The notes below the pieces were generated by a model, which saw only the letters and a program-made list of their open reading frames with translations, did no database searches and was not told the DNA's origin. Below, in pieces: positions 5,452-58,116 of a stretch of DNA of 64,000 nt. Every line of letters begins with the position of its first letter. Position 1 is the stretch's first letter. Position numbers and translations under genes: made by a program. This DNA comes from Patescibacteria group bacterium (GTDB lineage: Bacteria; Patescibacteriota; Minisyncoccia; Phycocordibacterales; UBA12079), in assembly GCA_018817595.1 (NCBI GenBank), contig JAHITU010000001.1:32109-96108 (forward strand), given 5' to 3'.

Positions 5452-6472
5452 TCAGCTTTTCCCCTAAAATTTTAGGAGTACAGTTCTGAGTTAATTTATT
5501 ATACCCATTTTGAGATAAATTACCTCTCAAAATTGAATTTCCTTTTAATTCCAATATTGCCTTTGATAATTCTTCGGGATTTGCTCTAGGAATTAAATAT
5601 AAATCATTTTCATTAAACAATTCTTTTATAGCAGGAGTATCCGCAGTAATAACTGGTTTTCTACAAGCTATACATTCATAAACCTTATTCGGAATTACTT
5701 TTTGAGTCTTACCAGTATTCCCAAAAATACCTAAACAGATATCTGATTGGTTAATAAAATCACAAAGTTTTTCATAAGGAACATTTTCTTTAAAATTTAT
5801 ATTTTTTAAATCATAATTTCCATATTGTTTTTTAACACTAGAACCTATTATATTAAATTGAATATCTTTTTGCTTTTCCAAGATTTTTGCTGATTCTAAA
5901 ATATATTCAATCCCTTGTAGTGGAATATTTGTCCCATGAAAATGAACTACGAATTTATTACTTTCTTTTTTTTCTCTTGGATTAAAAATAGAAATATCTG
6001 TCCCGACAAAAAGTCTATAAAATTTTTCTCTTTTAATATTAAATTTTCTAACAAAATATTTTATGTTTTCGTTTGTATCTAATAAAATTTTGTTTGCAAA
6101 TTTACATGACAACCAATCTAGAAAACAATAATATTTAGCTTTCAAAGTTCCTTTTTTAGTGGTTTTTCTATCAAATACTTCAGATTCATAAATAGGAGCA
6201 AATAAATCAAAAACAATCTTTTTTCTAGTTAAAAAACGAGCAAGGATCATAGTTTGAAAACCTGGAAAAGCTACAAACAAAACATCATAGTGTTTTCTAA
6301 TTTCCCAATGTTTTTTGATTAAATCTAAGTATTTAAATAAACCATTTTTATCAGAACGACATTCTAATATTTTTACGCCATTTTGTTTTAAACCATTAAT
6401 TAAAACACAATTTCTTGCATATTCATGATTATAAATCCCAAAAAAACAAATTGTTAATTTTTTTTCTTCCAT
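5429..6472 (-). CDS. Glycosyltransferase family 4
   Basis: 347 aa with a GT-B C-terminal domain (ECIACRKPVITADTPAIKELF). Confidence 0.65.
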   Translation of the reverse strand: MEEKKLTICFFGIYNHEYARNCVLINGLKQNGVKILECRSDKNGLFKYLDLIKKHWEIRKHYDVLFVAFPGFQTMILARFLTRKKIVFDLFAPIYESEVFDRKTTKKGTLKAKYYCFLDWLSCKFANKILLDTNENIKYFVRKFNIKREKFYRLFVGTDISIFNPREKKESNKFVVHFHGTNIPLQGIEYILESAKILEKQKDIQFNIIGSSVKKQYGNYDLKNINFKENVPYEKLCDFINQSDICLGIFGNTGKTQKVIPNKVYECIACRKPVITADTPAIKELFNENDLYLIPRANPEELSKAILELKGNSILRGNLSQNGYNKLTQNCTPKILGEKLIDIINEK

Positions 6473-7557
6473 TATATTTTTTGATAAAGTCTTATTATTT
6501 TTTTTATCAAATTTTCTAAATTATGGTCATTCACAACAATATTTCTTAATCTTTTTCCTATTTTTATTTTATCTTCCTCAGATAATCTTATAATATTTTC
6601 TATTTTATTACTTAAATCATTAACACTCTTTGGTTTAAAAAATAATTTTTCTGAATATTCAGCAAAAACATTTTTAGAAGAATCATTTGATGATAAAACT
6701 AGTAAACCACACGACATTGCTTCTAAAATTGCCTTATCCAATGACCCTGTTTGACTTGTATTTACAAATAAATCGGCTCTATGCAAATAATCGACTATTT
6801 CTTTGTTTGGAACAGAACCTATAAAACTAATATTATTTTCTAAACCATAATCTTTGACTTTTTGTTTTAAATTTTCTAAATATTTTTTTTGGTCTGGTTT
6901 TCCTACGCCACCAATGATATCCAATTTAATTTTTAAACCTTTTTCTCTTAAAAATTTAATCGAGTTAATTAAGGTATCGTAATCCTTAATCGGTGAAATT
7001 CTTCCAATGGTAATTATACTAAAAATATCTTTTTTTAGGTTATCTTCTTTTTTATTAAATCTATTTACATCTATTCCATGACCAGTAATATTCAATTTTT
7101 TAGTTTCTAGACGAAATGATTCAGAAGTGGCTGAAAATATAATATGGGTTAATTTTTCTGCTAATCTCAGCTTTAAATCTACGGATTTATGCATATACCA
7201 TAAACCAATTTTTTTACCCCATAATCGCCACAAAAATCCTCCTAGAACGACGTATTCGGGATTCATGTGAACAAACACATTGTCGTAATTGTTTCTTTCT
7301 TGCCAGATGTATTTATAGAAGTTTGCTATGTATTCTTGTTTACTGGACTGCTTCGCTATGGCTCGCAGAGACGAAGTGTTTTTATCTTTACCCAAAGATA
7401 AAACCTTAACATTACGAGGTAAATCATGTTCACCCACACCTAAGGCAATCACTGTGATTTTCTCACAATGTTTAGCGAATTCAGCAATCCACCCATGGAA
7501 AAATCCGAGGATATCATCATTTTTATCTACTTTTTGTGTGAGTATTAATAATTTCAT
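6472..7557 (-). CDS. Glycosyltransferase family 4
   Basis: 361 aa. TSQTGSLDKAILEAMSCGLLVLSSN is the GT4 motif. It contains an in-frame copy of an intergenic repeat at 7343-7403 (see findings). Confidence 0.75.
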   Translation of the reverse strand: MKLLILTQKVDKNDDILGFFHGWIAEFAKHCEKITVIALGVGEHDLPRNVKVLSLGKDKNTSSLRAIAKQSSKQEYIANFYKYIWQERNNYDNVFVHMNPEYVVLGGFLWRLWGKKIGLWYMHKSVDLKLRLAEKLTHIIFSATSESFRLETKKLNITGHGIDVNRFNKKEDNLKKDIFSIITIGRISPIKDYDTLINSIKFLREKGLKIKLDIIGGVGKPDQKKYLENLKQKVKDYGLENNISFIGSVPNKEIVDYLHRADLFVNTSQTGSLDKAILEAMSCGLLVLSSNDSSKNVFAEYSEKLFFKPKSVNDLSNKIENIIRLSEEDKIKIGKRLRNIVVNDHNLENLIKKIIRLYQKI

Positions 7558-7663: not shown

Positions 7664-8053
7664 TTAAAGAGAGTTCGCTTTCTTGACGGCTTTTTTAATT
7701 TCTTCAAATATATTTCTACCAACAAATCCTACCTTATTTACTAAACGAAGACTATCTATATTTTTTAATTGAGACAAAATAGCAATAGCTTCTTTTCCAT
7801 CAACACTACCAATTGGACAATAATATCTACCTAATTTTATTTTACTAGTTAAAGGTATTGCTAAAAAAGAATATTTATTATATTTTTTCAAAATTAAGAC
7901 TGGGCGTGTAAAATCTTCGCTTTTACCATCCGTTTCATACCCAATATTAATACCAAGTTTGACCCACCATATTTCACCATCACGAAAATACAATCTATCT
8001 TTTTGTTCATTTATTTCTTTTTTCTTTTCATTCCAAATATCAAAATTTTTCAT
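7664..8053 (-). CDS. PemK/MazF-family endoribonuclease toxin-like protein
   Basis: 129 aa. RDGEIWWVKLG...TRPVLILKK...LAIPLTS follows the MazF/PemK fold signature (RPxLIL, IPLT). No antitoxin ORF is adjacent. Confidence 0.55.
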   Translation of the reverse strand: MKNFDIWNEKKKEINEQKDRLYFRDGEIWWVKLGINIGYETDGKSEDFTRPVLILKKYNKYSFLAIPLTSKIKLGRYYCPIGSVDGKEAIAILSQLKNIDSLRLVNKVGFVGRNIFEEIKKAVKKANSL

Positions 8054-8110
8054 ACGTACAAAATATTACACTAATTTATTCTTTTTATATAATTTAAGAC
8101 TTACTAGACT

Positions 8111-9271
8111 TTAAACTTTGTAGACTTTTGACTCTTTTATTGTTTTTAACCAAGCATCTTTCATCATATTTAGCGACTCATTTTTTGTTTGAGGGACTTT
8201 TCTTAAAAAGTCATTATAAGCCTTTTCTTTCAATTCTTCTAACAATTCTGGATGTTGTTGTGCGTTTATTAAACTTTGAGTTAAACACTTCCCATCTCCG
8301 ACATCACACAACAGAGCATTATTTCCACTCAAAATTTCCCCTACAATCCCTACATTAGTGGTCAAAATAGGACAATGAGAAAGAATGGCTTCAACTAAAG
8401 AAAGTCCATAACCCTCATAATTGGATGTAGATAAAAACAAATCAGCTGTTTTATAATAGGAAATAGGATCGTCAGTCCAACTGTTAAAAATAATATTTTG
8501 CTCTAATCCTTTTCTTCGAGCTAATTTTCTTAATGAATTCCTTTTTGAACCAGACCCCACTATTACTAAACCAGTTTTAGGAAAGACTCTAACGACTTCC
8601 TTCATAGCCGAAATAGCCAAAGCAATATTTTTCTCTTCTTCCAAACGACTCATCATTAAAATAATAAATTTAAATTGGGGATATTTTTCTTTTAAGAAAA
8701 AGCTGGGGGTGATAACCTGAACCAAAGCAGTGCTAGAAAAAATAGGAATAACTGTTATAAATTTATTTTGTATTTCAAGGGGTAAAGAATTTTTTATCCT
8801 TTTAGAAACTACTCTAATATGATCGGCTTTGTTTAACAGAAACCTAGCTATCATTGTTCTAATACGATTCGCAAAAGAATGTTTTATAAAATATTTATTA
8901 AATAAATCTGTATGAATTTGCAACTCTAATTTAGTTTTTAATTTTTGAGAGATTAACCATGCAATAACTCCTGTTTCATATGCATCTTGTGCTGTGACTA
9001 AATCAATTTTAGTTTCATTTTCCTTAATTAGAGAATTTATTTTTAAAGCTACTTTTATAGCATCTCTAATATAAAAAAAACTATTTCTGGAATTAGTTGG
9101 ATATAGATAAACATTTTCACCTATTTTTGTCTTTCTAAAAGGTTCATTTTCTTTATTTAAAATAATCACATCTAATCTATCAATTAAAGTACCATAATCA
9201 AAAAGCCTTTGTCTTACATCAGAATTTTCTTCAAATACTTTTCTGTCTATAGATATGGATAATATTCTCAT
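8111..9271 (-). CDS. Glycosyltransferase family 4
   Basis: 386 aa. STSNYEGYGLSLVEAILSHCPILTTNVGIVGEIL. Confidence 0.75.
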   Translation of the reverse strand: MRILSISIDRKVFEENSDVRQRLFDYGTLIDRLDVIILNKENEPFRKTKIGENVYLYPTNSRNSFFYIRDAIKVALKINSLIKENETKIDLVTAQDAYETGVIAWLISQKLKTKLELQIHTDLFNKYFIKHSFANRIRTMIARFLLNKADHIRVVSKRIKNSLPLEIQNKFITVIPIFSSTALVQVITPSFFLKEKYPQFKFIILMMSRLEEEKNIALAISAMKEVVRVFPKTGLVIVGSGSKRNSLRKLARRKGLEQNIIFNSWTDDPISYYKTADLFLSTSNYEGYGLSLVEAILSHCPILTTNVGIVGEILSGNNALLCDVGDGKCLTQSLINAQQHPELLEELKEKAYNDFLRKVPQTKNESLNMMKDAWLKTIKESKVYKV

Positions 9272-9289: not shown

Positions 9290-10387
9290 TTATTGCTCTT
9301 TTAAAATTTTCTCTAAATTAGAAATAGTGTTTTCTATTGAAAACTTTTGGGATTTATTAAAAGCATTAATTACTATTTTATTTCTAAATTCATCATTTCT
9401 GATAATTTTATTCACAGCACTTATTATTTGTTTTTTGTTGTTTGGTTCAATCAAAATACCATCCATATCATTCTGAATTAATTCTGGCAAAGAACCAACA
9501 TTTGTAGCGATAACTGGTAATTTTAAATTCATTGCCTCTATAGTATCAAAAGAAAAAGATTCCCAATTGGTATTAAATACAAAAATATCAGAATTCTTTT
9601 TTAAATCTAGTAATTCATCTCTAGAAACTGGCCCTGTCAAAATAACATTCTCATCTAATCCAAGTCTTTCTATAATTTTTTCTAATTCTTCTTTTTGAGG
9701 ACCTCCTCCTACAATTTTTAATTTTAGATTCGGAATTTCTTTCAAAATATCTGGCATTGTTTCTATCAAAACATCAAAACCTTTCCAAGGCACTAACCGT
9801 CCCACAGACAATAAAACCTTACTTTCGACTTTATGAACTTTATGGACTTTTGACTCGTTTAGTTCAATCCCGTTATAGATTGGAATTATTTTATTTGAAT
9901 CAATTCCCCAATTAATAATTACTCTTTTAAAATAATGACTAGGCACTATTACTTTTTCAGCAGACCAAGCGACTGCTTTTTGAATCATCTTTAGAAATCC
10001 AACAGAAAAACCATATCCTTTTTCTTTTACTGAAAATACATCGAGATTATCCTTCACACCAAATCTTTGTACTCCCTGCTCCCATGCATAATCCCCCGCA
10101 ATTCTAATTAAAAATCTTTTTTTCAAGATTTTATTAGCCAACATAGTCGGCATGCCAACACTCACAGGATCCTGTGCATAAATAATATCTACTTTTCTAG
10201 CTCTTTTTAAAATTTTAAGGAAATAGACAAAGTGGCGAATTATCTTAGGCAAATTTCGTACTTCTCCAAATGATAAAATCTCTACCTCAATCCCTCTTTC
10301 GGGTAATTTGTCATATAATAATTTTGAATATGTAGCTGGTCCCCCAATATCAGGTGGATATATTCCTGTAGTAATTAATATTTTCAT
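9290..10387 (-). CDS. Glycosyltransferase family 4
   Basis: 365 aa. N-terminal MKILITTGIYPPDIGG and C-terminal NTNWESFSFDTIEAMNLKLPVIATNVGSLPELI. Confidence 0.8.
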   Translation of the reverse strand: MKILITTGIYPPDIGGPATYSKLLYDKLPERGIEVEILSFGEVRNLPKIIRHFVYFLKILKRARKVDIIYAQDPVSVGMPTMLANKILKKRFLIRIAGDYAWEQGVQRFGVKDNLDVFSVKEKGYGFSVGFLKMIQKAVAWSAEKVIVPSHYFKRVIINWGIDSNKIIPIYNGIELNESKVHKVHKVESKVLLSVGRLVPWKGFDVLIETMPDILKEIPNLKLKIVGGGPQKEELEKIIERLGLDENVILTGPVSRDELLDLKKNSDIFVFNTNWESFSFDTIEAMNLKLPVIATNVGSLPELIQNDMDGILIEPNNKKQIISAVNKIIRNDEFRNKIVINAFNKSQKFSIENTISNLEKILKEQ

Positions 10388-15655: not shown

Positions 15656-17125
15656 TTAAAAAGGTTTTTCGTTGTCCATATCTAATTTTGTGGCATAACC
15701 TACCCCTCCAACTGCTACCAAAGTAATTCCAAACAAAATAAAACTCCATTTATTTAAAGGAAATTTTGATTTTTTATCTCCTTCTTCTTTTTGTGGTCCT
15801 ATCATGTCTAAAGATTCATTTATTTTCGCTATTTGATTATTAGAACTTTCATCTAAGACAACTTCTCTAGGTTTTTCGACAGAATAAACAATTGGTTCTG
15901 GAACAATAATATTTTTTTCAAGATTATAACTTATTGTTTTTTGTTCAATGATTATTTTTTCAACATAATTAAAGGCTATCATTCCATTTGGATAAAGTAG
16001 CTGTATCTCTGAATTATCATTTGGTAATAATTTTGTAATATCAAAAGGTAATTTAATAAAAGAATTAGATAATAAAATAGTGTTTTTAGGCAAAGTAAAA
16101 TAACTATTATCAGCCTTTATTCTCCACCATGAAATATCTAAATCATTATCTGAAGAATTATGTAATTCAATAAAATTATCTTGTGATGAAATATTCACTT
16201 TTGAAATTTCTATTTCAGCAGGAACAACTTCTATTTTCATTTTATCACAAGTTGAATGTTCCCCTGAAATTACTTCCAACATTACTAAATATTCCCCTGG
16301 ATAAACATAATTATGCAAAACTTTTTGTCCTTCTTTCTTAGAACCATCACCAAAGGTCCATAGATAATAAGCATTTTTCAACGGTTCATCTTTTAAACCT
16401 AAAGCTTTACCATTTAGTTCAAAATCCGCTCCAGCAATGGGTAAATATTCTAATTCATCTATTTCTGCTTTTATATTTATCTTTACGATATCACGAGCAG
16501 AATTTGAAGGTGATGATGAACTGGTTGTTGAAGTAGTATCAACAACATTTTCATCATTAGTTGTAGAAGTAGAATTTTCTTCTATATAATTAACTTTTCC
16601 CAAGGTGGGACTAGAAGCTACCCAATTACCATTTATTTTTTGCAAAGATTTACCGTCTCCATTAGCTCCCCATTCTGATAAATAATTTACAGAATCAATA
16701 TCTAATAAATCTGAATTCCTAATTACTAAAATTTCACCTGTGTTTTTTAAAGAAAATGAAGTATCTAAAACCAAACCTGCAAAATTTGGTTGATCTTCAA
16801 AAAACTTTTCTGGATTATCAGATAAAATCGCATAACCCCCTCCATTAATAATAGTATTTCCACCCTCCAAAATAGATTTTATTTTATGATTAACTTCAGC
16901 TTCGTATAATCTATATTCACTCAAATTAACATCCTCTGTTCCTGAATTATAAACTTCAATCCATTCTCTCCCAGTGTCTCCTCCAATTTCTAAATCATAC
17001 ATTATTTCTGTAATTTCAATCTGAGCCAAAGAAACAATAGGAATAAAAAAGAAAAAGGAAAAAGCAGCTACCAAACATAGCTGTTTTTTATTTAAAATTA
17101 AATTATTCTTCAGGATGTTTAACAT
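15656..17125 (-). CDS. Lamin-tail-domain (LTD) surface protein with N- and C-terminal transmembrane segments
   Basis: 489 aa. ITEIMYDLEIGGDTGREWIEVYNSG and FIELHNSSDNDLDISWWRIK are two LTD-like repeats, with a signal/TM N-terminus and a C-terminal TM. Confidence 0.6.
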   Translation of the reverse strand: MLNILKNNLILNKKQLCLVAAFSFFFFIPIVSLAQIEITEIMYDLEIGGDTGREWIEVYNSGTEDVNLSEYRLYEAEVNHKIKSILEGGNTIINGGGYAILSDNPEKFFEDQPNFAGLVLDTSFSLKNTGEILVIRNSDLLDIDSVNYLSEWGANGDGKSLQKINGNWVASSPTLGKVNYIEENSTSTTNDENVVDTTSTTSSSSPSNSARDIVKINIKAEIDELEYLPIAGADFELNGKALGLKDEPLKNAYYLWTFGDGSKKEGQKVLHNYVYPGEYLVMLEVISGEHSTCDKMKIEVVPAEIEISKVNISSQDNFIELHNSSDNDLDISWWRIKADNSYFTLPKNTILLSNSFIKLPFDITKLLPNDNSEIQLLYPNGMIAFNYVEKIIIEQKTISYNLEKNIIVPEPIVYSVEKPREVVLDESSNNQIAKINESLDMIGPQKEEGDKKSKFPLNKWSFILFGITLVAVGGVGYATKLDMDNEKPF

Positions 17126-19010
17126 ATAGCATTTTTTCTAAATTTTCTCTTGAAACACCATTTTCAGGCTTTCTTTCAGGTTCTTTAGGGTAAAATATTC
17201 GAGAAGAATCTTCCTGTGATGTTTTTATTTCTGAATCTTTGGCTTTAATTTCTTCACGAATAATATTCTGGTTATTATTTTCAGACTCCTCTGTCTCTAC
17301 TTTTATTTTTCTTTGAGAAATTTCTTCTTTCCCGCCTCCTTGACGGGTCGCCGATGAGGCGGTTTCTCTTTCTTTCACTTCTTTTTCTAGACTTTTCATT
17401 GCTTCAGACAATGCCTGTTTTAATTGGTTTTTATTTTCAACCGCCACTCGAGGGGCCTTAACAAATTTTGACTTAACAAACTCTTTTTTATCATTTTTAT
17501 TCAGATCACCTAAACTAATTCTGTTACTTTTTGTTTGAGGATATATTTTTTTAGCAAAAGATTCTTCAGACGTAGAAATAATTGGCAAAACTTCATCTTT
17601 GTCATTAATCTTTCTTGTTGGAATTCTTGCTGTGCTAGGTTTTGCTTTAGCAACAGGTTTAACCTTGGTAGAATCTAGCCATTCTTCAATATTTCTTTCC
17701 ACCTCTTCTTTAGCTGCAGCAAAACTCTTTCTAGAATTTTCTAGGATTTCATTTTTATAAGAAAATTCTGGTTTAGTTATAGGTGGTAAGGTTCTTGCAG
17801 AAAAAGGCGTAGAACCGATTCCGTCAATCATCAAACGAAGATAAATTTGAGCAAAACCTAAATTAACAATATCTTCTGCTAAAAAGTTTGGAGCAAATTC
17901 TTTTTCTAATTGTTCCGCATCAGTTGCCCCCACCCTAAAAGCAATCATAGTTCCTACGTTACCAAATACTGCAGCATGCACTGTCTCTGGCATTTGTTCT
18001 ATATATTGATGAGCGATAGTTAAGTTCAATTTATATTTTCTAGCTTGAGATAAAATATCAGCGAAAGAATCATTAGCTAGGTTTTGAAATTCGTCGATAT
18101 ATAAATAAAAATTAGGGAGTTTTGCTAATTCATCACTAGAAACATCAGCACGACTCATCGCTGCTAAATAAATCTTTGTAGTTAACATTGAACCTAATAA
18201 GTTTGCGTTAGCTTCTCCAACCTGCCCAATAGAAAGATTCACTAAAAGAATCTTTTTGCTATCCAAGACATCTCTGAAATCAAAAGAAGACTTTGATTGT
18301 CCAACAATATTTCGTATTAAAGGATTAGAAGTAAATTGACCTACCTTGTTTAGAATGGCAGCATAAGCATCTTTTCTATATCTCTCGTCCCAACCAGCAA
18401 ACTCTTCAGTCCAAAAAGATTTTACTGATGAATCAGTAATATTATCCACTACTTTTTTTCGATATTTTGCATCGGTAAAGATTTTGGTCATTCCCAACAT
18501 AGTAGATCCAGGGTATTCCAAAAGGGCTAACAAAGTATTGTTGGTGATGTGTTCCATTCGGTCAGAAAAAGTATCTTCTCCCCAAATCTTTTTGAAAGCC
18601 GAAAGTAGCCCTTGAGCTACCAAGTGTCTTTTATCAGGACCAACATCTTCCATAACATTAAAAGAAATCGGGTGCTCGGTATCAAAAGGGGCAAAATAAA
18701 TCACATCCTCGATTCTCTCTTCGGGAACATAATCAAGAAATTTCTTAACTGATTGTCCGTGGGGGTCAATAAAACAAATTCCATTTCCACTTTTAATATC
18801 TTGTACTGCCATGTTTTCCAACATAGTAGATTTTCCCATACCGGTTTTACCAATCACATAGACGTGACGAGTTCTATCAGAGGCTTTAATACCAAAAGGA
18901 GTTCTTTTATTTCTACGATCTACCTCAGCAAAATATGTAATAGGATTATCATTATTCATTGTTGTAATTATATAAGAAAAAAGAAAAAGTTGAAAGTGAT
19001 TGACAAACAT
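17103..19010 (-). CDS. TraD/VirD4/TraG-like AAA ATPase (coupling-protein-like, soluble)
   Basis: 635 aa. Walker A VIGKTGMGKST, Walker B LYIDEFQNL, an IAHQYIEQ Q-motif, and a K/E-rich low-complexity tail. Overlaps the LTD gene by 23 nt. Confidence 0.6.
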   Translation of the reverse strand: MFVNHFQLFLFSYIITTMNNDNPITYFAEVDRRNKRTPFGIKASDRTRHVYVIGKTGMGKSTMLENMAVQDIKSGNGICFIDPHGQSVKKFLDYVPEERIEDVIYFAPFDTEHPISFNVMEDVGPDKRHLVAQGLLSAFKKIWGEDTFSDRMEHITNNTLLALLEYPGSTMLGMTKIFTDAKYRKKVVDNITDSSVKSFWTEEFAGWDERYRKDAYAAILNKVGQFTSNPLIRNIVGQSKSSFDFRDVLDSKKILLVNLSIGQVGEANANLLGSMLTTKIYLAAMSRADVSSDELAKLPNFYLYIDEFQNLANDSFADILSQARKYKLNLTIAHQYIEQMPETVHAAVFGNVGTMIAFRVGATDAEQLEKEFAPNFLAEDIVNLGFAQIYLRLMIDGIGSTPFSARTLPPITKPEFSYKNEILENSRKSFAAAKEEVERNIEEWLDSTKVKPVAKAKPSTARIPTRKINDKDEVLPIISTSEESFAKKIYPQTKSNRISLGDLNKNDKKEFVKSKFVKAPRVAVENKNQLKQALSEAMKSLEKEVKERETASSATRQGGGKEEISQRKIKVETEESENNNQNIIREEIKAKDSEIKTSQEDSSRIFYPKEPERKPENGVSRENLEKMLYVKHPEE

Positions 19011-19076: not shown

Positions 19077-19484
19077 ATGGAAATTGAATTAAAACAATGG
19101 GTCAAAGGAAAAAGAACCCCATCAGATAACCCAGCAAATATACTAGCAACGGAAGACGAGACACATTTTTGTTTTGACTTCCCCCTTTCTGTTTGGTCAA
19201 ATGGTTCTACAATTTGTGTTGTCCCAAAAGATGGCACAAAAGCTGAATGGCTTGACGGCTTCAAAACAGAAATTGAAATAGTCGGTCGTTCTTCCAAAAC
19301 AGAAAGATTGGGAATGGGTTGCAACCCAAAAAACTGGAGACATTATCTCAACCCTCTGTTTATTGTGAACCAAGAGATTCTTGATTTACTTTTGAAGTTC
19401 GGAGAGGAAAACAATTTGACCAATTTAATCGAATTGGTCAAAAAAGGAAATCCTCATCCTGATTTCCCGATCAAAAGATTTTGA
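19077..19484 (+). CDS. Hypothetical protein (start moved to the ATG after the AGGAGG RBS)
   Basis: AGGAGG at 19065-19070, ATG at 19077, 135 aa (MEIELKQWVKGKRTP...). The listed ORF start at 18753 runs antisense through the ATPase gene. A hairpin terminator sits at 19495-19525. Confidence 0.5.
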   Translation: MEIELKQWVKGKRTPSDNPANILATEDETHFCFDFPLSVWSNGSTICVVPKDGTKAEWLDGFKTEIEIVGRSSKTERLGMGCNPKNWRHYLNPLFIVNQEILDLLLKFGEENNLTNLIELVKKGNPHPDFPIKRF

Positions 19485-19526
19485 AGAATTAAAACCCCTG
19501 AACACAAAATACCAGTGTTCAGGGGT

Positions 19527-19790
19527 TGATTTATTTCTGGACTGCTTCGCAAGCTCGCAGAGACGAATTTTGCTTTGCAAAATTCGTTAACGAAAAGCTT
19601 TGCTTTTCGTACGAACGAGACTTTGTCTCGTCCGTCTTTGCGAGGAGGTCACGACAGTCTACCCGTCCTTGCTTGCTACTGCGCACCCCTGCGCGCCGGC
19701 AGGCGTGGCCAGGCAGGGATGAGGTGGGAAGCAATCCAGAGATTTTTACAAAAATACTCCAGTTAACTGGAATAGTTTTTCTTAATTCTT
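19527..19790. repeat. Composite GC-enriched repeat element (family E core, three hairpins, partial family A)
   Basis: ctggactgcttcgcaagctcgcagagacgaa (19537-19567) is followed by three perfect hairpins: cgaattttgc/gcaaaattcg, acgaaaagc/gcttttcgt and acgagac/gtctcgt. Then cccctgcgcgccggcaggcgtggccaggcaggg. Confidence 0.6.
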
Positions 19791-19922
19791 AAATCCAAAA
19801 AAAAAAATAAACTCAAAATCGGATACAGTTCAAGGAATCGAAGGAAAAAATTTTGAGTCGTACTTCAGGTACGGTGAAAAATATTTTTCTGCGGCTGACG
19901 AAGAAATGTGCCGATTTTGGGT

Positions 19923-21300: not shown

Positions 21301-21425
21301 ATTGTTTATATTATACTTTATTTATTTTGAATAACCAAATATTAGTTTAGCTTATAGCTTATAGAGGTTAGCTTTTAGGAGAAAAATTTACTTCGTAAAT
21401 TTTTCTGACTTTCGACTTTACAGAC

Positions 21426-21464
21426 CTGCCTGTCCCTGCGCGCCGGCAGGCGTGGGCAGGCAGG
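21426..21464. repeat. Family-A GC-rich palindromic intergenic repeat (about 40 bp)
   Basis: cctgcctgtccctgcgcgccggcaggcgtgggcaggcagg, directly 3' of the rsmI stop. Other copies: 19685-19717 (partial), 31646-31685, 37523-37562 (plus mini-palindrome 37479-37497), 56525-56584 (opposite strand, with an internal duplication), 57588-57627. Confidence 0.8.
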
Positions 21465-21480
21465 CTTTATAGACTTTCGA

Positions 21481-22167
21481 CTAATTTATCATCACCACAA
21501 ATTCACCTTTTACCTTATCTGAATTGTCTTCAAAATATTTTATTACTTCTTCTATTGTTCCTGAAACAATTTGTTCAAACATTTTAGTTATTTCTCTACC
21601 AATAACAATTTTTTTATTTTGCTCAAATTCTTCTGATAATTCTTTTATTGTTTCTAGGGTTTTTAATATTCTGTGTGGAGATTCATAAAAAACAGCTGTT
21701 CTCTTTAATTCCAAAATTTCATTAATGGCAGTTTGTTTACCTTTTTTACGAGGCAAAAATCCAAAAAAAGTAAAAGAGTCCGCAGGTAAACCACTAACTG
21801 ACAAAGCAGAAATTAAGGCCGAAGGACCAGGAATTGGTGTGACCATAACACTCTCGCCAAATTTTTCTTTCACTTGAGCCACCAACATAAAACCAGGATC
21901 TGAAATAGTAGGCGTTCCAGCGTCAGAGACTAAGGCTAAATCTTTACCTTCTTCCAGTAATTCTAAAATTTTATCAGTCTTAATCTTTCCACTAAATGAA
22001 TGATAAGAAATAGTAGGAGTTTCTATTTCGTATTTATCTAAAAGTTTTCGAGTTACTCGAGTATCTTCGCATAATACAAAATCCACCTCTTTTAAAATTC
22101 TCAAGGCTCGTAAAGTAATATCTTCCAAGTTCCCAATAGGTGTTCCTATTATGTATAAATGTTGCAT
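21481..22167 (-). CDS. rsmI: 16S rRNA (cytidine1402-2'-O)-methyltransferase RsmI
   Basis: 228 aa. MQHLYIIGTPIGNLEDITLRALRILKEVDFVLCEDTR is a tetrapyrrole-methylase-fold RsmI N-terminus. Confidence 0.85.
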   Translation of the reverse strand: MQHLYIIGTPIGNLEDITLRALRILKEVDFVLCEDTRVTRKLLDKYEIETPTISYHSFSGKIKTDKILELLEEGKDLALVSDAGTPTISDPGFMLVAQVKEKFGESVMVTPIPGPSALISALSVSGLPADSFTFFGFLPRKKGKQTAINEILELKRTAVFYESPHRILKTLETIKELSEEFEQNKKIVIGREITKMFEQIVSGTIEEVIKYFEDNSDKVKGEFVVMIN

Positions 22168-23640: not shown

Positions 23641-24212
23641 ACCTGTCAGAGTCGAACCTACCTACCCCTATGTACCAAAAGGCGTGGACAGGTAAGCTGA
23701 CGACCTATGGTTTACGATACCATTGCTCCCGCCTCATCGGCGAGTCGCCGATGAGGCGACTACCATTAAACTTCAAACTGAGCCCTCTGTCGGACTTGAA
23801 CCGACCACCTACGATTTACCCTGTTAGAGCTGAGGGCGAGAATTGAACTCGCGACCTACGGTTTACGATACCGTTGCTCTACCAACTGAGCTACCTCAGC
23901 TCTAACAGGGTAAACGATACTATTATCCCGCCTCATCGGCGGGTCGCCGATGAGGCGACTACCAGATGAGCTAAGAGGGCAAACTCGTCTTAATCCCCAC
24001 CGGCTGGAGTTATATTGAGCCCGAGGACGGGATTGAACCGACGACCTACACATTACCATTGTTGAAACCTCCTAAGGTCGGTTTCAACTCCACCAACTGA
24101 GCTATTTCAATTACCTTTTGAGCCAACAAACGGAATCGAACCGATGACCTCTCCAGTGGACCATTAAAACTTGCGAATCTCGTCTTAATCCCCACCGACT
24201 GGAGCTCGAATG
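23641..24212 (-). other. Array of tRNA-Thr-derived fragments and pseudo-tRNA pieces with interspersed GC-rich palindromes
   Basis: Three copies of a Thr(CGU) anticodon arm (GGTATCGTAAACC or variant). T-arm/acceptor 3' halves at about 23770-23826 and 24017-24050. A 35-nt duplicate of the tRNA-Thr(GGU) 3' end at 24121-24155. Palindromes at 23731-23757 and 23930-23956. Confidence 0.5.
23828..23900 (-). tRNA. tRNA-Thr (anticodon CGU)
   Basis: Reverse complement folds manually as acceptor GCTGAGG/CCTCAGC, D arm GCTC-AGTTGGTA-GAGC, anticodon arm ACGGT-AUCGUAA-ACCGT, T arm GCGAG-TTCAATT-CTCGC, discriminator U. Confidence 0.7.
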
Positions 24213-25268: not shown

Positions 25269-25324
25269 CAACAAGTAAAACAAAAACCTCAGAATTAATT
25301 CTGAGGTTTTTGTTTTACTTGTTG
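25269..25324. terminator. Perfect 27-bp inverted repeat (2-nt loop) directly 3' of the initiator-like tRNA
   Basis: caacaagtaaaacaaaaacctcagaat / attctgaggtttttgttttacttgttg. The right arm overlaps the tRNA 3' end by 3 nt. Confidence 0.6.
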
Positions 25325-25392
25325 CGGGAGTCTGAATCGAACAGACACCTAGAGGTTATGAGCCTCCTGTGCAACCTTTACACCATCCCGCG
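25322..25392 (-). tRNA. tRNA-fMet-like (anticodon CAU, C1·A72 mismatch)
   Basis: 5' CGCGGGA paired with 3' TCCCGCA leaves C1·A72 unpaired, as in bacterial initiator tRNA. Anticodon arm GGAGG-CUCAUAA-CCTCT, T arm GTCTG-TTCGATT-CAGAC. 71 nt. Confidence 0.6.
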
Positions 25393-25395
25393 ATA

Positions 25396-25583
25396 TATTT
25401 AATATTTAATTTTCAACTATTATAATAACCTCTAAAGGTTATAAGTCATATTGCTTCATGTGCAGTTCGTCTACACCATCCCGCGATATATTTAATATTT
25501 AATTTTCAACTATTTTAATAACCTCTAAAGGTTATAAGTCATATTGCTTCATGTGCAGTTCGTCTACACCATCCCGCGATAAT
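25396..25583. repeat. Tandem direct repeat (about 93 bp x 2) of degenerate tRNA 5'-half-like units
   Basis: The unit ends in caccatcccgcgat, identical to the 5' acceptor/D region of the tRNA at 25322-25392. The unit also carries aacctctaaaggtt, echoing the anticodon stem. Confidence 0.7.
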
Positions 25584-25831
25584 TTAGCTTATAGCTTTTA
25601 GGAAATTAGGGTGTTAGGAGAAAAAATCGCTTTGCGATTTTTTTCTTTTCTACCTTTTCCTTTTTTCAATAATATAAAATATAACCCAAAAAACCCAAAA
25701 AAACAAGAAAAAAATAATTTCTAGACGGCTTCATTACTTCACTACGTTTCGTTTCTCGCAGAGACGAATTTTTATGAGGCAAAATTCACATAAATAATAC
25801 TTAATATATACTATATAATATGTAATATAGA

Positions 25832-31427: not shown

Positions 31428-31645
31428 TTTATTAGTTTTTTGGTTTCTGTCTTATTATATGGATTGAAGAGATTGCTTCCCTAGTACTTTGAATTAAATT
31501 GCTTACTTTTTATTTTACAAAGCATTTTAGGTTTTTTATTAACTTTATTTATATGGTTGTAACAAAGTACTAGGTCGCAAAGACGAAAATCTACGATTTT
31601 CATTACAGATTTTGCGGAGCAAAATCCGTAACTTTTGACTTTGGA

Positions 31646-31685
31646 CCCGCCTGCCCCTGCGCGCCGGCAGGCGTGGTCAGGCAGG
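31646..31685. repeat. Family-A GC-rich palindromic repeat copy
   Basis: ccgcctgcccctgcgcgccggcaggcgtggtcaggcagg, then ctttacagactttcgactcg, directly 3' of the pilin stop at 31707. Confidence 0.8.
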
Positions 31686-31706
31686 CTTTACAGACTTTCG
31701 ACTCGT

Positions 31707-32237
31707 TTACTGCCAATTCAATAAACGTTCTTTGACTACAAATTGACGAGTATTAGGACCCTCTTGCCAAGACATGGTTACTACTACTTCTAATTCCTTA
31801 TCTGGGATAATTTCATTTATTTCTATTTCCCTTTTAATCAAAGAAACATTTCCAGAGGTATAACCATAAAGATAACTAACTGGATCATATTTTAAATTTT
31901 CACAACCGCTTAAAGAACAAGAAGAAACTGTTTGAGCAGGAGAATCAATCTTACATTTAGTACCAAAATTAGTACAATCAGTCAAACCAATCAACCAACC
32001 TCTATCATTTAGAATATTTGTGTCTCTAACGTTTCTTATGTACTCAATAGCCTCTTGAGCTAAATACATAGCAACTATCTGCCCCTTAGCTATTTTAGAT
32101 ATGGAAAGTCCTTTTGTAACCAAAACTAATGGTCCAGACATAGCAATCAGCAAAACAGTAATAGCAATAAAAGTTTCTATCAAAGTAAAACCTCTTTTAA
32201 GTTTATTATTATTTTTTAATTTTTCAAAATATTTCAT
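31707..32237 (-). CDS. Type IV pilin/pseudopilin (prepilin N-terminal methylation motif)
   Basis: KRGFTLIETFIAITVLLIAMSG. Confidence 0.8.
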   Translation of the reverse strand: MKYFEKLKNNNKLKRGFTLIETFIAITVLLIAMSGPLVLVTKGLSISKIAKGQIVAMYLAQEAIEYIRNVRDTNILNDRGWLIGLTDCTNFGTKCKIDSPAQTVSSCSLSGCENLKYDPVSYLYGYTSGNVSLIKREIEINEIIPDKELEVVVTMSWQEGPNTRQFVVKERLLNWQ

Positions 32238-37409: not shown

Positions 37410-37478
37410 AATATGATTAGTTAAAAGTTTATAAAGTCGAAAGTCTTTTTTTAAAATTTCCGAAGCAAATTTTTACTC

Positions 37479-37562
37479 CTACCTGCCGGCAGGTAGGTTA
37501 TAGACTTTATGAACCTTACAGACCTACCTGCCCCTGCGCGCCGGCAGGCGTGGGCAGGCAGG
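37479..37562. repeat. Family-A repeat copy plus the adjacent mini-palindrome cctacctgccggcaggtagg
   Basis: Located 3' of the pilT stop (37579) and 5' of pilC. It is flanked by the pilus-promoter palindrome at 37454-37472. Confidence 0.8.
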
Positions 37563-37578
37563 CTTTTGACTGTTTCTT

Positions 37579-38640
37579 TTATTTAAAATTTCTATTTAAC
37601 TCCTTTGAACGATATGAATATTTTCTTGCATCTTCTAAAGTTATTTCTCCGAACCTAACTAAATCTTCTAGAGATTTATTCAAGCTCACCATTCCTTCGT
37701 TAGAAGATGTTTCGATAACATTGTGGATTTCAAAAGTTCTCCCTTCTCGAATTAGATTTGCAGTAGCGTTATTATTTATCAATAATTCATACGCAGGAAT
37801 CATACCCCCAGAAATTCTAGGAACCAATCTTTGAGAAAAAATACCTAGAAGAGAAGCTGCTAATTGAATTTTGATCTGGCTTTGTTGTTGGGGTGGAAAT
37901 ACATCAATAATTCTATCAATAGTCTGAGCTGCATTATTAGTATGCAAGGTAGAAAATACTAAATGGCCTGTTTCAGCAGCAGTAACAGAGGTAGAAATTG
38001 TTTCTAATCCTCTCATTTCTCCAATCATCAAAACATCAGCATCTTGTCTAAAAATAGACTTCAAAGCAGTTGGGAAATCCTTCGTGTCAATTTTTATTTC
38101 TCTTTGATCTATCATTGATTTACCTTCTTGGAAAACATATTCAATTGGATCCTCTATTGTAACGATATGTTCAGCCCTAGATTGGTTTATCATTTCTATC
38201 ATAGAAGCAAGAGTTGTTGATTTACCATGTCCCATAGGACCAACTACTAAGAAAAAACCTTGTTGTTTTTGAATAAAATCACCTAAAACTGGAGGTAAAT
38301 TAAGTTCTTCTAGTGTTTTTACTTTCTTTGGGATTAATCTAAGACTTATTCCAATCGATTTCTGAGTAAAAAAACAGGAACCTCTAAAACGAGCATCCCC
38401 CGCTTCAAAAGAAAAATCAATTTCTTTTTCTCTTAAAAACTCTTCTTTATACTCTGGTGTAAGGAGCTGAGTTACAACACCTAAAAGGTCCTCGTGGGTA
38501 ACCACAGGCATAGATTCTAAATAGTGTAAAATACCATGTACTCGTATTACAGGGTGTTTACCTTTAGATAAATGAATATCAGAACCATTTTCTTTTACAA
38601 CAGCATCTATTAAATCTTTTATTAATTTATTATAATCCAT
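37579..38640 (-). CDS. pilT: Type IV pilus retraction ATPase
   Basis: 353 aa. Walker A GPMGHGKST, a His box, and a PilT-like C-terminus. Confidence 0.85.
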   Translation of the reverse strand: MDYNKLIKDLIDAVVKENGSDIHLSKGKHPVIRVHGILHYLESMPVVTHEDLLGVVTQLLTPEYKEEFLREKEIDFSFEAGDARFRGSCFFTQKSIGISLRLIPKKVKTLEELNLPPVLGDFIQKQQGFFLVVGPMGHGKSTTLASMIEMINQSRAEHIVTIEDPIEYVFQEGKSMIDQREIKIDTKDFPTALKSIFRQDADVLMIGEMRGLETISTSVTAAETGHLVFSTLHTNNAAQTIDRIIDVFPPQQQSQIKIQLAASLLGIFSQRLVPRISGGMIPAYELLINNNATANLIREGRTFEIHNVIETSSNEGMVSLNKSLEDLVRFGEITLEDARKYSYRSKELNRNFK

Positions 38641-38807
38641 AAAATTAGTTAAAAGTCCTTAAAGTCAAAAGTCTATAAAGTCAAAATCCACTTCGCGAAT
38701 TTACTATTATATAATTTCAACATAAACTTATTATACTATAAATAAATTTATAAAAATTAAATTGTTGGGGAAAAATCACAAAGTGATTTTTACCACTTTC
38801 GACTCGT

Positions 38808-44012: not shown

Positions 44013-44130
44013 AAAAATAAATTTAATTAAATTTATTTTTTAGATTTAAGATTTAGGAATTAAGATTTAAGATTTAAGTCACCTCATCGGCGACCCGCCA
44101 AGGAGGCGGGATTTAAGATAACGGATTTTA

Positions 44131-56524: not shown

Positions 56525-56584
56525 CCTGCCTGCCCACGCCTGCCCACGCCTGCCGGCGCGCTGGGACGCGCAGGGGCAGGCAGG
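56525..56584. repeat. Family-A repeat copy (orientation matches + strand transcription; internal duplication)
   Basis: cctgcctgcccacgcctgcccacgcctgccggcgcgctgggacgcgcaggggcaggcagg, 80 nt after the stop of 55862-56443. Confidence 0.75.
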
Positions 56585-56741
56585 CTGCTTTGTCGAGTAA
56601 ATTTTATTTATATAGTTGTAACAAAGTGCTGGGGAAACAATCTAGTTTTTTATATATATTAAAAGGGCTTAAAATATATCTATTAAATAGCCCTCCGCCA
56701 GCTGGCGGACGGTTGGGCTATTTAATTTATGCAAAACAAAA

Positions 56742-57466: not shown

Positions 57467-57587
57467 AAGCCCCCCTCTATAAATTAGTTAACAGCTATTA
57501 TTAGTATAAGAATATAATCAAAAAATGCAAGAAAGAAAAAGACGGTCGCTTTTGCGACCGTCTTTTCCCTAATTAGCTAATTCCTAA

Positions 57588-57627
57588 CCTGCCTGCCCCT
57601 GCGCGCCGGCAGGCGTGGGCAGGCAGG
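57588..57627. repeat. Family-A repeat copy
   Basis: cctgcctgcccctgcgcgccggcaggcgtgggcaggcagg, directly 3' of the stop of 57640-58116. Confidence 0.8.
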
Positions 57628-57639
57628 TTTCCTAAAAAG

Positions 57640-58116
57640 CTATCTTGTGTATTTAAGAGTATTTCCCCTATCTAAATAAATCATCTCTAGATTGTTTTCA
57701 TCTAATTTTACAATTTGATAGAAAAATTGTTCACCTCCTGATACATAAAGCATATATTTTCCGTTTTCACTTTCAAGAGTTTCTCTTGTAATAGGATATT
57801 CGTCATAAAGCATAATTGGTCCTTCACTCATAGCTGCTCCGTCATAAAAATCAATTTTATATTTATCGCTGAATTCAATAACTGATTTTTCATCATCTAA
57901 TGATTTCCAAGGTCCTCTCATTTTTTCATAATTATTTAAACCAATTAAATCCCTTTCTTGGCTCTCCTGATTCCCTTGATTCTCTTGATTTTTCACAATG
58001 GAATCATTGTTAACGTCACTTTCCTCTAAATTTTCAATTGGTTTATCTAGAAAACTTAAACCAAACCATGCCAACAAAACAATTCCTATTAATATCCAAA
58101 TTTTTTCTGATTTCAT
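57640..58116 (-). CDS. Hypothetical secreted protein
   Basis: 158 aa. Signal/TM MKSEKIWILIGIVLLAWFGLSF. Confidence 0.45.
   Translation of the reverse strand: MKSEKIWILIGIVLLAWFGLSFLDKPIENLEESDVNNDSIVKNQENQGNQESQERDLIGLNNYEKMRGPWKSLDDEKSVIEFSDKYKIDFYDGAAMSEGPIMLYDEYPITRETLESENGKYMLYVSGGEQFFYQIVKLDENNLEMIYLDRGNTLKYTR

Follow-up and report, generated by a model that had tools for sequence, protein, structure and literature searches.

A small, dispersed and mostly extragenic repeat appears to have been inserted in frame into the coding region of a GT4 glycosyltransferase gene of a Patescibacteria group bacterium, and comparison of the gene with its orthologues supports this conclusion. The gene lies in a 64-kb stretch of DNA that was analyzed as a whole (the window). 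The repeat adds ten residues to the enzyme, which as modeled is without visible breakage. Three features define the locus.

6472-7557, minus strand: intact, repeat-bearing GT4 (GT-B fold) glycosyltransferase gene of 361 aa, assigned from the ORF, Pfam, AlphaFold2, and Foldseek
7343-7375, plus strand: REP-like unit, a singlet in frame, with tail-side arm 7343-7356, loop TATGG at 7357-7361, and head-side arm 7362-7375
7380-7403, no strand assigned: perfect hairpin, stem 10 bp and loop 4 nt, TTTTATCTTT-accc-AAAGATAAAA, in which 7380-7389 pairs with 7394-7403

The gene product is an otherwise normal GT4 enzyme

The product of ORF 6472-7557 is 100% identical to a GT4 family protein of a Patescibacteria group bacterium (P0001) and matches Pfam Glycos_transf_1 at 1.2e-27. 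A search of 5.8 billion proteins retrieved 4674 homologues. The AlphaFold2 model built on the alignment has a mean pLDDT of 90.8 and a pTM of 0.87, and Foldseek groups it with the GT-B GT4 enzymes MshA, BshA, HepE, and PimA (E values down to 1e-18). In the alignment of homologues, motif residues D274, K275, and E279 of the C-terminal domain are conserved and intact, while S54, L55, G56, and K57 do not vary among 33 homologues. The sole segment of the model with a pLDDT below 50 comprises residues 61 to 70, flanked by a strand (residues 50 to 54) and a helix (residues 69 to 86). The insert is thus predicted to occupy a disordered surface loop within an otherwise normal GT4 enzyme.

A complete repeat unit is read in frame

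The plus strand at 7343-7375 reads CTGGACTGCTTCGC-tatgg-CTCGCAGAGACGAA. Both 14-mers recur exactly in an intergenic unit at 19537-19567 (28/28 nt), and the loop alone differs (5 versus 3 nt). This confirms the proposal of an earlier, sequence-only reading of the window that an intergenic repeat core lies inside the GT4 coding sequence with the frame preserved. When up to two mismatches are allowed, the window contains three matches to the first 14-mer (0.04 expected) and five to the second (0.10 expected); for neither arm did any of 100 shuffles reach the observed number.

The reverse complement of the unit begins with TTCGTC and ends with TCCAG, and the GT4 coding strand across it reads AC[T TCG TCT CTG CGA GCC ATA GCG AAG CAG TCC AG]T, with the unit in brackets. 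It provides the third base of T61, the whole of S62 to S71 (SSLRAIAKQS), and two bases of S72, so that the frame remains open in the context ...GKDKN-T-SSLRAIAKQS-S-KQEY.... At the insert, DKNT + SSLRAIAKQS + SKQEYIAN aligns against EEGV + SRLKYILN. This amounts to a net 30 nt (7345-7374), or ten residues, and the other 3 nt of the 33-nt match fall on flanking codons. The sequence-only reading had described a low-complexity loop of roughly 20 aa: the insert does lie in a loop, but the gain is about 10 to 11 residues. Five of the six reading frames of the genic copy contain no stop codon, the used frame among them. Neither a target-site duplication nor an inverted partner was detected at this 33-nt singlet. 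Rfam gave nothing at the gathering threshold at the genic copy or at 19537-19567, and only chance-level matches across 19380-19820.

An 11-bp hairpin had also been described as joined to the repeat. Its perfect stem is 10 bp long, and 7380-7403 codes for the family-conserved (V52)LSLGKDK(N60). Because it encodes the invariant SLGK region, the hairpin is ancestral coding sequence outside the repeat, and we rejected it as a repeat component given that S54 to K57 do not vary across the 33 homologues. About 30 distinct hairpins with a stem of at least 10 bp occur in the window, where 1 to 2 would be expected; since most of them are intergenic, a single AT-rich genic hairpin is not compelling on its own.

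Orthologues point to insertion into a basal linker

The nearest non-identical homologue from the protein search shares 73% identity and the 90% cluster has one member, and the insertion is read from more distant orthologues. The same search of the databases, with its 90% cluster of one, yielded no empty-site allele of exactly this GT4 gene. Across 33 aligned homologues, the invariant SLGK is immediately followed by a hypervariable, gapped stretch between conserved flanks. We parsed 98 linkers from the best 120 homologues. A conserved 12-residue linker (E.G.SRLKY..N), which lacks the segment, was present in approximately 37 of the 98, and one linker was shorter. Approximately 60 of the 98 carried 1 to 39 extra residues whose sequences are mutually unrelated. 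The 12-residue linker is the ancestral (basal) state. The orthologue alignment that had been suggested as a check thus identifies the loop as an insertion. The accompanying suggestion that a repeat was inserted into a coding region is likewise borne out, as homologues with the basal linker lack the segment and the unit is dispersed across about ten phyla.

Several orthologues were compared at the DNA level. One with the basal linker (P0010, locus L081) has an empty site from which the unit is absent. A second (P0002, locus L078) carries a CCTACCTCGCCGGCAGGCAGG palindrome at the same site; within its own 21-kb locus, no further copies of this insert were found beyond AT-rich words. A third (P0008, locus L085) has AGCCTGCCTGCCGGCAGGCAGGTCCATAAAGTTGAAAGT at this site and again in its interdomain linker, and the same module forms the intergenic modules at 21398-21486 and 31620-31708 of the window. 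From these site comparisons it follows that separate lineages have each had this GT4 loop colonized by a different intergenic module, in independent events. The extra peptides in the approximately 60 homologues are translated copies of other intergenic repeat modules.

Intergenic units and a composite in the window

In total, the 64-kb window contains two short-loop units and three long-loop or diverged units. The intergenic units and their associated hairpins are as follows.

19537-19567, plus strand: short-looped (AAG) sister unit between genes, CTGGACTGCTTCGC-aag-CTCGCAGAGACGAA, the left member of a head-to-head pair
19563-19587, 19590-19610, and 19612-19634, no strand assigned: three tandem small hairpins, flanked by the pair's two CGTC heads
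19631-19739, minus strand: inverted partner unit, with head arm 19631-19644 (CTCGCAAAGACGGA) and tail arm 19726-19739 (CTGGATTGCTTCCC)
25721-25768, plus strand: unit in which a 20-nt loop separates the diverged tail arm from the exact head arm (25755-25768)
31467-31587, plus strand: unit with a long loop, tail arm GAGATTGCTTCCC and head arm GTCGCAAAGACGAA

The loops of the window units measure 3, 5, 20, ∼80, and ∼90 nt (3 to ∼95 nt overall) and can house other modules. Thus, the ∼80-nt loop of unit 19631-19739 contains a GC-rich module, and the ∼90-nt loop of unit 31467-31587 is closed by a 10-bp stem (tagtactttg/caaagtacta). These two long-loop units, on the minus and plus strands, respectively, are additional to the copies that had been noted before. 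The partial copy previously placed at 25758-25790 does exist, but its position required revision: the exact right arm lies at 25755-25768, with the match running on to 25770, and the diverged left arm, CTAGACGGCTTCAT (10/14 matching), lies upstream at 25721-25734.

The head-to-head pair of 19537-19567 and 19631-19739 forms one nested fold, every arm pairing with the matching arm of the other unit, and the DNA fold of 19530-19745 reaches -57.9 kcal/mol (z -7.5). The composite (19537-19739) has inverted 14-nt ends that are complementary at 12 of 14 positions; a flanking duplication was not evident. The genes around the intergenic units, judged from Pfam matches of ten window ORFs, are housekeeping genes.

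The unit has an imperfect but covarying stem

On the strand of the gene, the unit reads (T)CGTC - T - CTGC - GAG - C..loop..G - CGAA - GCAG - T - CCAG. TTCGTCTCTGCGAG, the reverse complement of 7362-7375, carries the unpaired CGTC tag. The stem consists of an outer stem of 4 to 5 bp, a conserved GAG/GAA mismatch, and an apical stem of 2 to 3 bp. The outer stem is CTGC/GCAG (4 bp) in the window units and ATTGC/GCAAT (5 bp) in the commonest variant elsewhere. A relaxed pattern gathered 164 units from 716 kb; a set of 80 exact units was analyzed as well. Among the 164, one outer-stem pair is C-G in 102 and T-A in 50, with 95% paired (shuffles, 76%); at the next pair, T-A occurs in 140, C-G in 9, and T-G in 7. 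Across phyla, the purine-rich internal GAG/GAA mismatch is retained. In the 164 units, 2 to 28 nt (modes, 5 and 11 nt) separate the conserved cores of the two arms, a distance that takes in the apical stem. Tails of CTC (n = 59) and CCA (n = 45) are found in the same set, and the window units end in TCCAG. The head of the exact units is CGTC in 42 (G after GAGAC) or TGTC in 21 (A), together 63 of 80, and at least 19 of the 80 have an inverted partner within 130 nt. Folding did not support a lone unit as a stable hairpin, either as DNA (z 0.16 and -1.9) or as RNA (z -0.27 and 0.17).

The unit is widespread and mainly extragenic

A search of one genome per species (596 Gb) with the 22-base core pattern GACTGCTTCGC-N2-6-CTCGCAGAGAC located 76 loci in about ten phyla, against a chance expectation, by our own arithmetic, of ∼0.3 matches. 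Deferribacterales and Seleniivibrio carry many copies each. Other unit-bearing taxa include a Legionella MAG, Oceanospirillaceae, alpha- and "delta"-proteobacteria, Christiangramia and other Bacteroidota, Chloroflexota, Atribacterota (Caldatribacterium), Lentisphaeria, Dependentiae (Babeliales), and Hydrogenedentota. Within the CPR, the unit occurs in Saccharibacteria, Paceibacterota, and Moraniibacteriota. One Patescibacteria genome (JAZDMO01) contributes 5 exact hits. The flanks of the 76 loci are unrelated among themselves and to GT4. Of 80 exact units, the window copy is the only one clearly internal to a long ORF, the rest being located at or beyond ORF ends. Taken together, these distributions indicate that the genic unit is of extragenic origin.

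We searched all ORFs of at least 70 aa in the 716 kb with phmmer, using six RAYT/TIRYT queries (REP- or TIR-associated tyrosine transposases) from the PMC3733652 supplement, and found no RAYT/IS200-like ORF at an E value of ≤1e-3; the search had power only within 8-kb flanks and a single 64-kb window. When the flanking ORFs were clustered all against all, no cross-phylum gene family emerged beside the units other than generic ones (e.g., ABC transporters).

The unit is a relative of the CGTC-tagged REPs

The closest described counterpart is the superfamily of CGTC-tagged REPs, which includes Neisseria dRS3 and R. conorii RPE-4 and RPE-6 (Di Nocera, De Gregorio & Rocco 2013, BMC Genomics 14:522; PMC3733652). 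As characterized there, these repeats have a CGTC, TGTC, or CCTC tag and an unpaired CCA tail, occur predominantly as head-to-head dimers in several phyla, and possess a perfect stem of 8 to 9 bp with complementary A-T at stem positions 1 and 2 and a loop of 4 to 5 nt (PMC3733652). Single units may lie in frame in genes, contributing ∼8 to 10 residues, and no dedicated transposase is described for them (PMC3733652). The present unit resembles these repeats in its unpaired CGTC/TGTC head, CCA-type tail (CCAG), head-to-head pairs, multiple and mainly extragenic copies, occurrence in several phyla with little sequence change, in-frame genic single unit, and lack of a visible dedicated transposase. 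Moreover, its commonest variant opens the stem with ATT and closes it with AAT.

In contrast, its stem is imperfect (T.T, CTGC/GCAG, the GAG/GAA mismatch, and GC/GC) and falls short of 8 to 9 perfect base pairs, while its loop spans 3 to ∼95 nt rather than 4 to 5 nt. The supplement lists the peptides VIPAKAGI, DSRLRGND, VIPGLDPGIH, VIPWLDHGI, and VILDGRNIEF for CGTC-1 to CGTC-4 (PMC3733652). The translations of the present unit (SSLRAIAKQS and DCFAMARRD) match none of these listed peptides, through which the families were compared. The phyla in which the unit occurs (Patescibacteria, Deferribacterota, Dependentiae, Chloroflexota, Atribacterota, and others) are likewise outside the five treated in PMC3733652. 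Because the stem and loop differ from those of the superfamily and the peptides differ from those of CGTC-1 to CGTC-4, we file the unit as a relative of the CGTC-tagged REPs that probably lies outside the described families.

The idea of "selfish DNA in protein-coding genes" reportedly goes back to Ogata et al. and their work on RPE-1 and its relatives. RPE-1 is ∼100 to 150 bp long and specific to Rickettsia. In the account given in PMC3733652, Rickettsia palindromic elements are palindromic repeats found in frame in genes that stay intact, and the family is also intergenic. The GT4 copy is similar in that the ORF is intact after in-frame insertion, the place is a surface or otherwise tolerant one, and the host has a small genome and a dependent lifestyle. 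It differs in being 33 nt long and pan-bacterial, in its CPR host, and in that several unrelated modules share one loop across orthologues. The peptides given for R. conorii RPE-4 and RPE-6 in PMC3733652 (VIPWLDHGI and SFLRKQES...DSRFRGND) are of another sequence type. In-frame insertion of selfish repeats is already known from Rickettsia elements and intragenic REPs; the present case illustrates such an event cleanly without being of a new kind.

The unit also shares features with REP/BIME/REPIN elements, such as short extragenic palindromes, a tetranucleotide at the foot of the stem, inverted pairs that give a larger hairpin, and mosaics with other motifs. Unlike REP/REPIN-RAYT systems, its tag is CGTC and not GTAG, and no RAYT-like (Y1 HUH) ORF was present in the 716 kb; unlike classical REPs, which are largely species or genus specific, its sequence is common to several phyla. 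Bacterial MITEs, for example those of Coxiella burnetii as described in PMC5896051, are also non-autonomous small repeats that can lie in coding regions and alter proteins. MITEs have terminal inverted repeats of 15 to 30 bp, usual target-site duplications, and lengths of 70 to 300 bp, whereas the genic copy is a 33-nt singlet. TIGR arrays were considered as well and show no evident relation to the present element. A literature search linking CPR or Patescibacteria with REP, MITE, or palindromic intergenic repeats retrieved nothing, which is absence of evidence only, and searches with the repeat sequence strings returned primer matches only.

Other modules are read in frame in the window

Three genes of the window contain in-frame modules, namely the GT4 gene at 6472-7557 and two others with other modules.

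17330-17368: GC-rich 39-nt palindrome, read in frame in the gene for a TrwB/TraG-like coupling protein, within the C-terminal tail
9821-9853: aaagtcNataaagtcgaaagt motif in a second GT4 gene (9290-10387), where it encodes ESKVHKVHKVESK within the interdomain linker

Siblings of the palindrome are found at 44077-44115, 23727-23765, and 23926-23964, and siblings of the aaagtcNataaagtcgaaagt motif at 37424-37444 and 38652-38688. The same aaagtcNataaagtcgaaagt insert is present in the orthologue of GT4 gene 9290-10387 at locus L081.

Probable neutral insertion into a permissive loop and its alternatives

The best explanation, which we hold to be likely, is that a selfish repeat was inserted in frame, and neutrally, into a GT4 loop that is permissive. 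The 33 nt at 7343-7375 represent one full singlet of a small, dispersed, imperfectly palindromic repeat, a copy of which entered the gene in the β3-α2 loop of the N-terminal Rossmann domain. It probably survived there through a net length that is a multiple of three (+30 nt), a stop-free frame, and a loop that tolerates extra residues, and SSLRAIAKQS would most likely be neutral baggage rather than a functional module. Copying may have occurred in trans by an enzyme acting on single-stranded hairpins, by recombination, or by template switching. The data above establish the insertion, its extragenic source, its site in a disordered loop, and the recurrent use of that loop by other modules; the neutrality of the peptide and the mechanism of copying are what we infer from this picture. 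The identity of the arms to copies from other phyla could mean that the insertion is very recent or, alternatively, that the sequence is under constraint.

An unlikely alternative is that insertion is targeted by structure, with the SLGK-encoding hairpin serving as a landing pad for palindromic modules and the site as a mutational hotspot; the route would be a hairpin-recognizing single-strand enzyme or template switching at hairpins. The genic unit indeed lies 4 nt from the perfect 10-bp hairpin, and the two together fold as DNA at z -4.2. A hairpin also directly follows every intergenic head arm in the window, whereas in other phyla the head arm is usually followed by a partner unit or unrelated sequence without a hairpin. 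The SLGK codons are inherently semipalindromic in orthologues (TCC TTA GGA AA), yet the hairpin there is far weaker, and 1 to 2 hairpins of this kind are expected by chance per window. While approximately 60% of orthologues are occupied at this single site, among the five occupied sites read as DNA the inserts lie anywhere from 3 to ∼13 codons past SLGK. Furthermore, low-confidence or low-complexity regions also harbor the second hotspot and the TraG-tail example, as a simple tolerance filter predicts. Because the insert positions vary and the other colonized places are simply disordered, a tolerance filter is more economical than hairpin targeting.

It is more improbable still that the unit, with or without the hairpin, has been exapted and serves the gene as an RNA structure, a protein-binding DNA site, or a useful peptide before α2; as an RNA structure, it might modulate translation or mRNA decay in a glycosyltransferase operon. 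The arms are undecayed (28/28), and conservation of the purine-rich mismatch across phyla suggests recognition by some factor. In PimA-type GT4 enzymes, moreover, an amphipathic helix with an implied part in membrane association follows the equivalent β3-α2 loop, which would favor such a role. Structure in the mRNA sense, however, is not above that of shuffles (z -0.76 for the unit-plus-hairpin region; z -0.27 for the unit, with a second RNA value of 0.17), and no promoter or terminator signal was found at the genic repeat region, both of which argue against an exapted RNA function. The peptide is also predicted to be disordered, and orthologues have wholly different modules, or none, at the same place.

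That the intergenic copies are instead fragments of the GT4 gene, as the sequence-only reading had offered as an alternative, or that the likeness arose by chance or low-complexity convergence, is scarcely credible: the two share 28 nt and nothing further, similarity stops at the unit borders, GT4 orthologues lack the unit, the chance expectation is negligible, and the 76 loci from about ten phyla lie in unrelated, mostly extragenic contexts with unrelated flanks, so that derivation from GT4 is rejected.

Implications for CPR genomes and proteins

In-frame insertion of the repeat into the GT4 gene extends selfish repeats in protein-coding genes, best known from Rickettsia, to a CPR bacterium. 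New here are the CPR host, a repeat sequence type that is spread widely among phyla, and how often a single loop has been hit, with some repeat module present in the same loop in approximately 60% of the orthologues of one GT4 family. The CGTC-tagged repeats thereby gain a sequence type with an imperfect stem and variable loop as well as several new phyla. For annotation, CPR low-complexity loops such as SSLRAIAKQS, PAGRQV, KVYKVES, NFQFSIFN, and NYELRI are better taken for translated repeats than for functional motifs.

A broader reading, which we offer only tentatively, is that the CPR harbor a toolkit of unrelated palindromic modules (the CGTC-type unit, cctgccggcagg, aaagtcNataaagtcgaaagt, and others) that may routinely colonize tolerant loops, and that near-identity across phyla without a linked transposase may reflect mobilization or maintenance by a universal host function rather than by an element-encoded enzyme. 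If this reading is true, such modules would be a major, undescribed source of length variation and of "CPR-specific insertions."

Insertions in GT4 genes

Alignment of the GT4 homologues (A1) revealed a second insertion hotspot of the family in the interdomain linker (columns about 260-300; residues about 168-178 of the window protein, the 361-aa product of the GT4 gene at 6472-7557). Translated-repeat peptides at this hotspot include SLPAGRQVRK, NYELRI, and ADRGWVSDFPATKQVWRGAGRF; in A1, the window protein itself lacks an insert there. Another GT4 gene of the window carries an in-frame motif, aaagtcNataaagtcgaaagt, that is translated as ESKVHKVHKVESK in the interdomain linker.

9821-9853, motif within GT4 gene 9290-10387 (- strand)
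37424-37444, 38652-38688, 21408-21428, and 8108-8128, siblings of this motif

The same insert is found in the orthologous gene of a related locus (L081) and is thus older or conserved.

Inserts also occur at the site following the invariant SLGK motif in two homologues, P0103 (locus L083) and P0031 (locus L084), where they read …TPTRSLRRSEATEKVQVGVTP… and …DRSSRRSETKWSDG…. Both are encoded by GC-rich palindromes, the cores of which (CGTTCCTTGAGGAGGAGCGAAGCGACGG) resemble degenerate units of the CGTC-type (REP-like) family. This family may have hit the post-SLGK loop independently.

Nested modules and hairpins

The loops of REP-like units can contain 80 to 90 nt of other material, as in units 19631-19739 and 31467-31587, one of which holds a GC-rich module and the other an AT-rich segment with a 10-bp closing stem. 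Thus, the modules are nested in one another. The GC-rich module, CCTGCCCCTGCGCGCCGGCAGGCGTGGGCAGGCAGG, is usually flanked by the motifs agactttcgact and ctttatagac, and shorter in-frame versions of it are present in the GT4 orthologues P0008 and P0002. The genome surrounding the module is AT-rich. Three small tandem hairpins of the form ACGAA..GC-TTT-GC..TTCGT, differing in the middle of the stem, lie where the two heads of the REP-like pair face each other and look like paralogs with compensatory changes. Hairpins resembling them adjoin other units.

19672-19719, 21423-21488, 31644-31709, 37521-37586, 56525-56586, and 57586-57651, GC-rich module
19563-19634, three tandem small hairpins
21380-21406 and about 31584-31632, similar hairpins adjoining other units

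A repeat in a coupling-protein gene

The gene for a type IV coupling protein resembling TrwB/TraG contains an in-frame, GC-rich palindromic module of 39 nt, which encodes …ERETASSATRQGGGKEE… in the low-complexity C-terminal tail. This module is the window's second repeat inside a gene; its near-identical siblings are intergenic.

17330-17368, module within ORF 17103-19010 (- strand)
44077-44115, 23727-23765, and 23926-23964, intergenic siblings

Other features of the window

Two near-perfect tandem duplications were found, the first of which adjoins tRNA-Met (25321-25392) and overlaps its end. A match to LOOT RNA (Rfam RF03000) exceeded the gathering score of 46.4, reaching 60 bits.

25379-25564, tandem duplication, 2 x 93 nt, 99% identity
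26418-26591, tandem duplication, 2 x 87 nt, 100% identity
52116-52251 (- strand), LOOT RNA match
7664-8053 (- strand), PemK/MazF-like toxin gene

The toxin gene has GT4 genes on either side. Because the orthologous position in related loci (L078, L081, L084, and L085) is occupied by NYN, GIY-YIG, or PemK genes, the small nuclease/toxin genes of this glycosyltransferase cluster are interchangeable.
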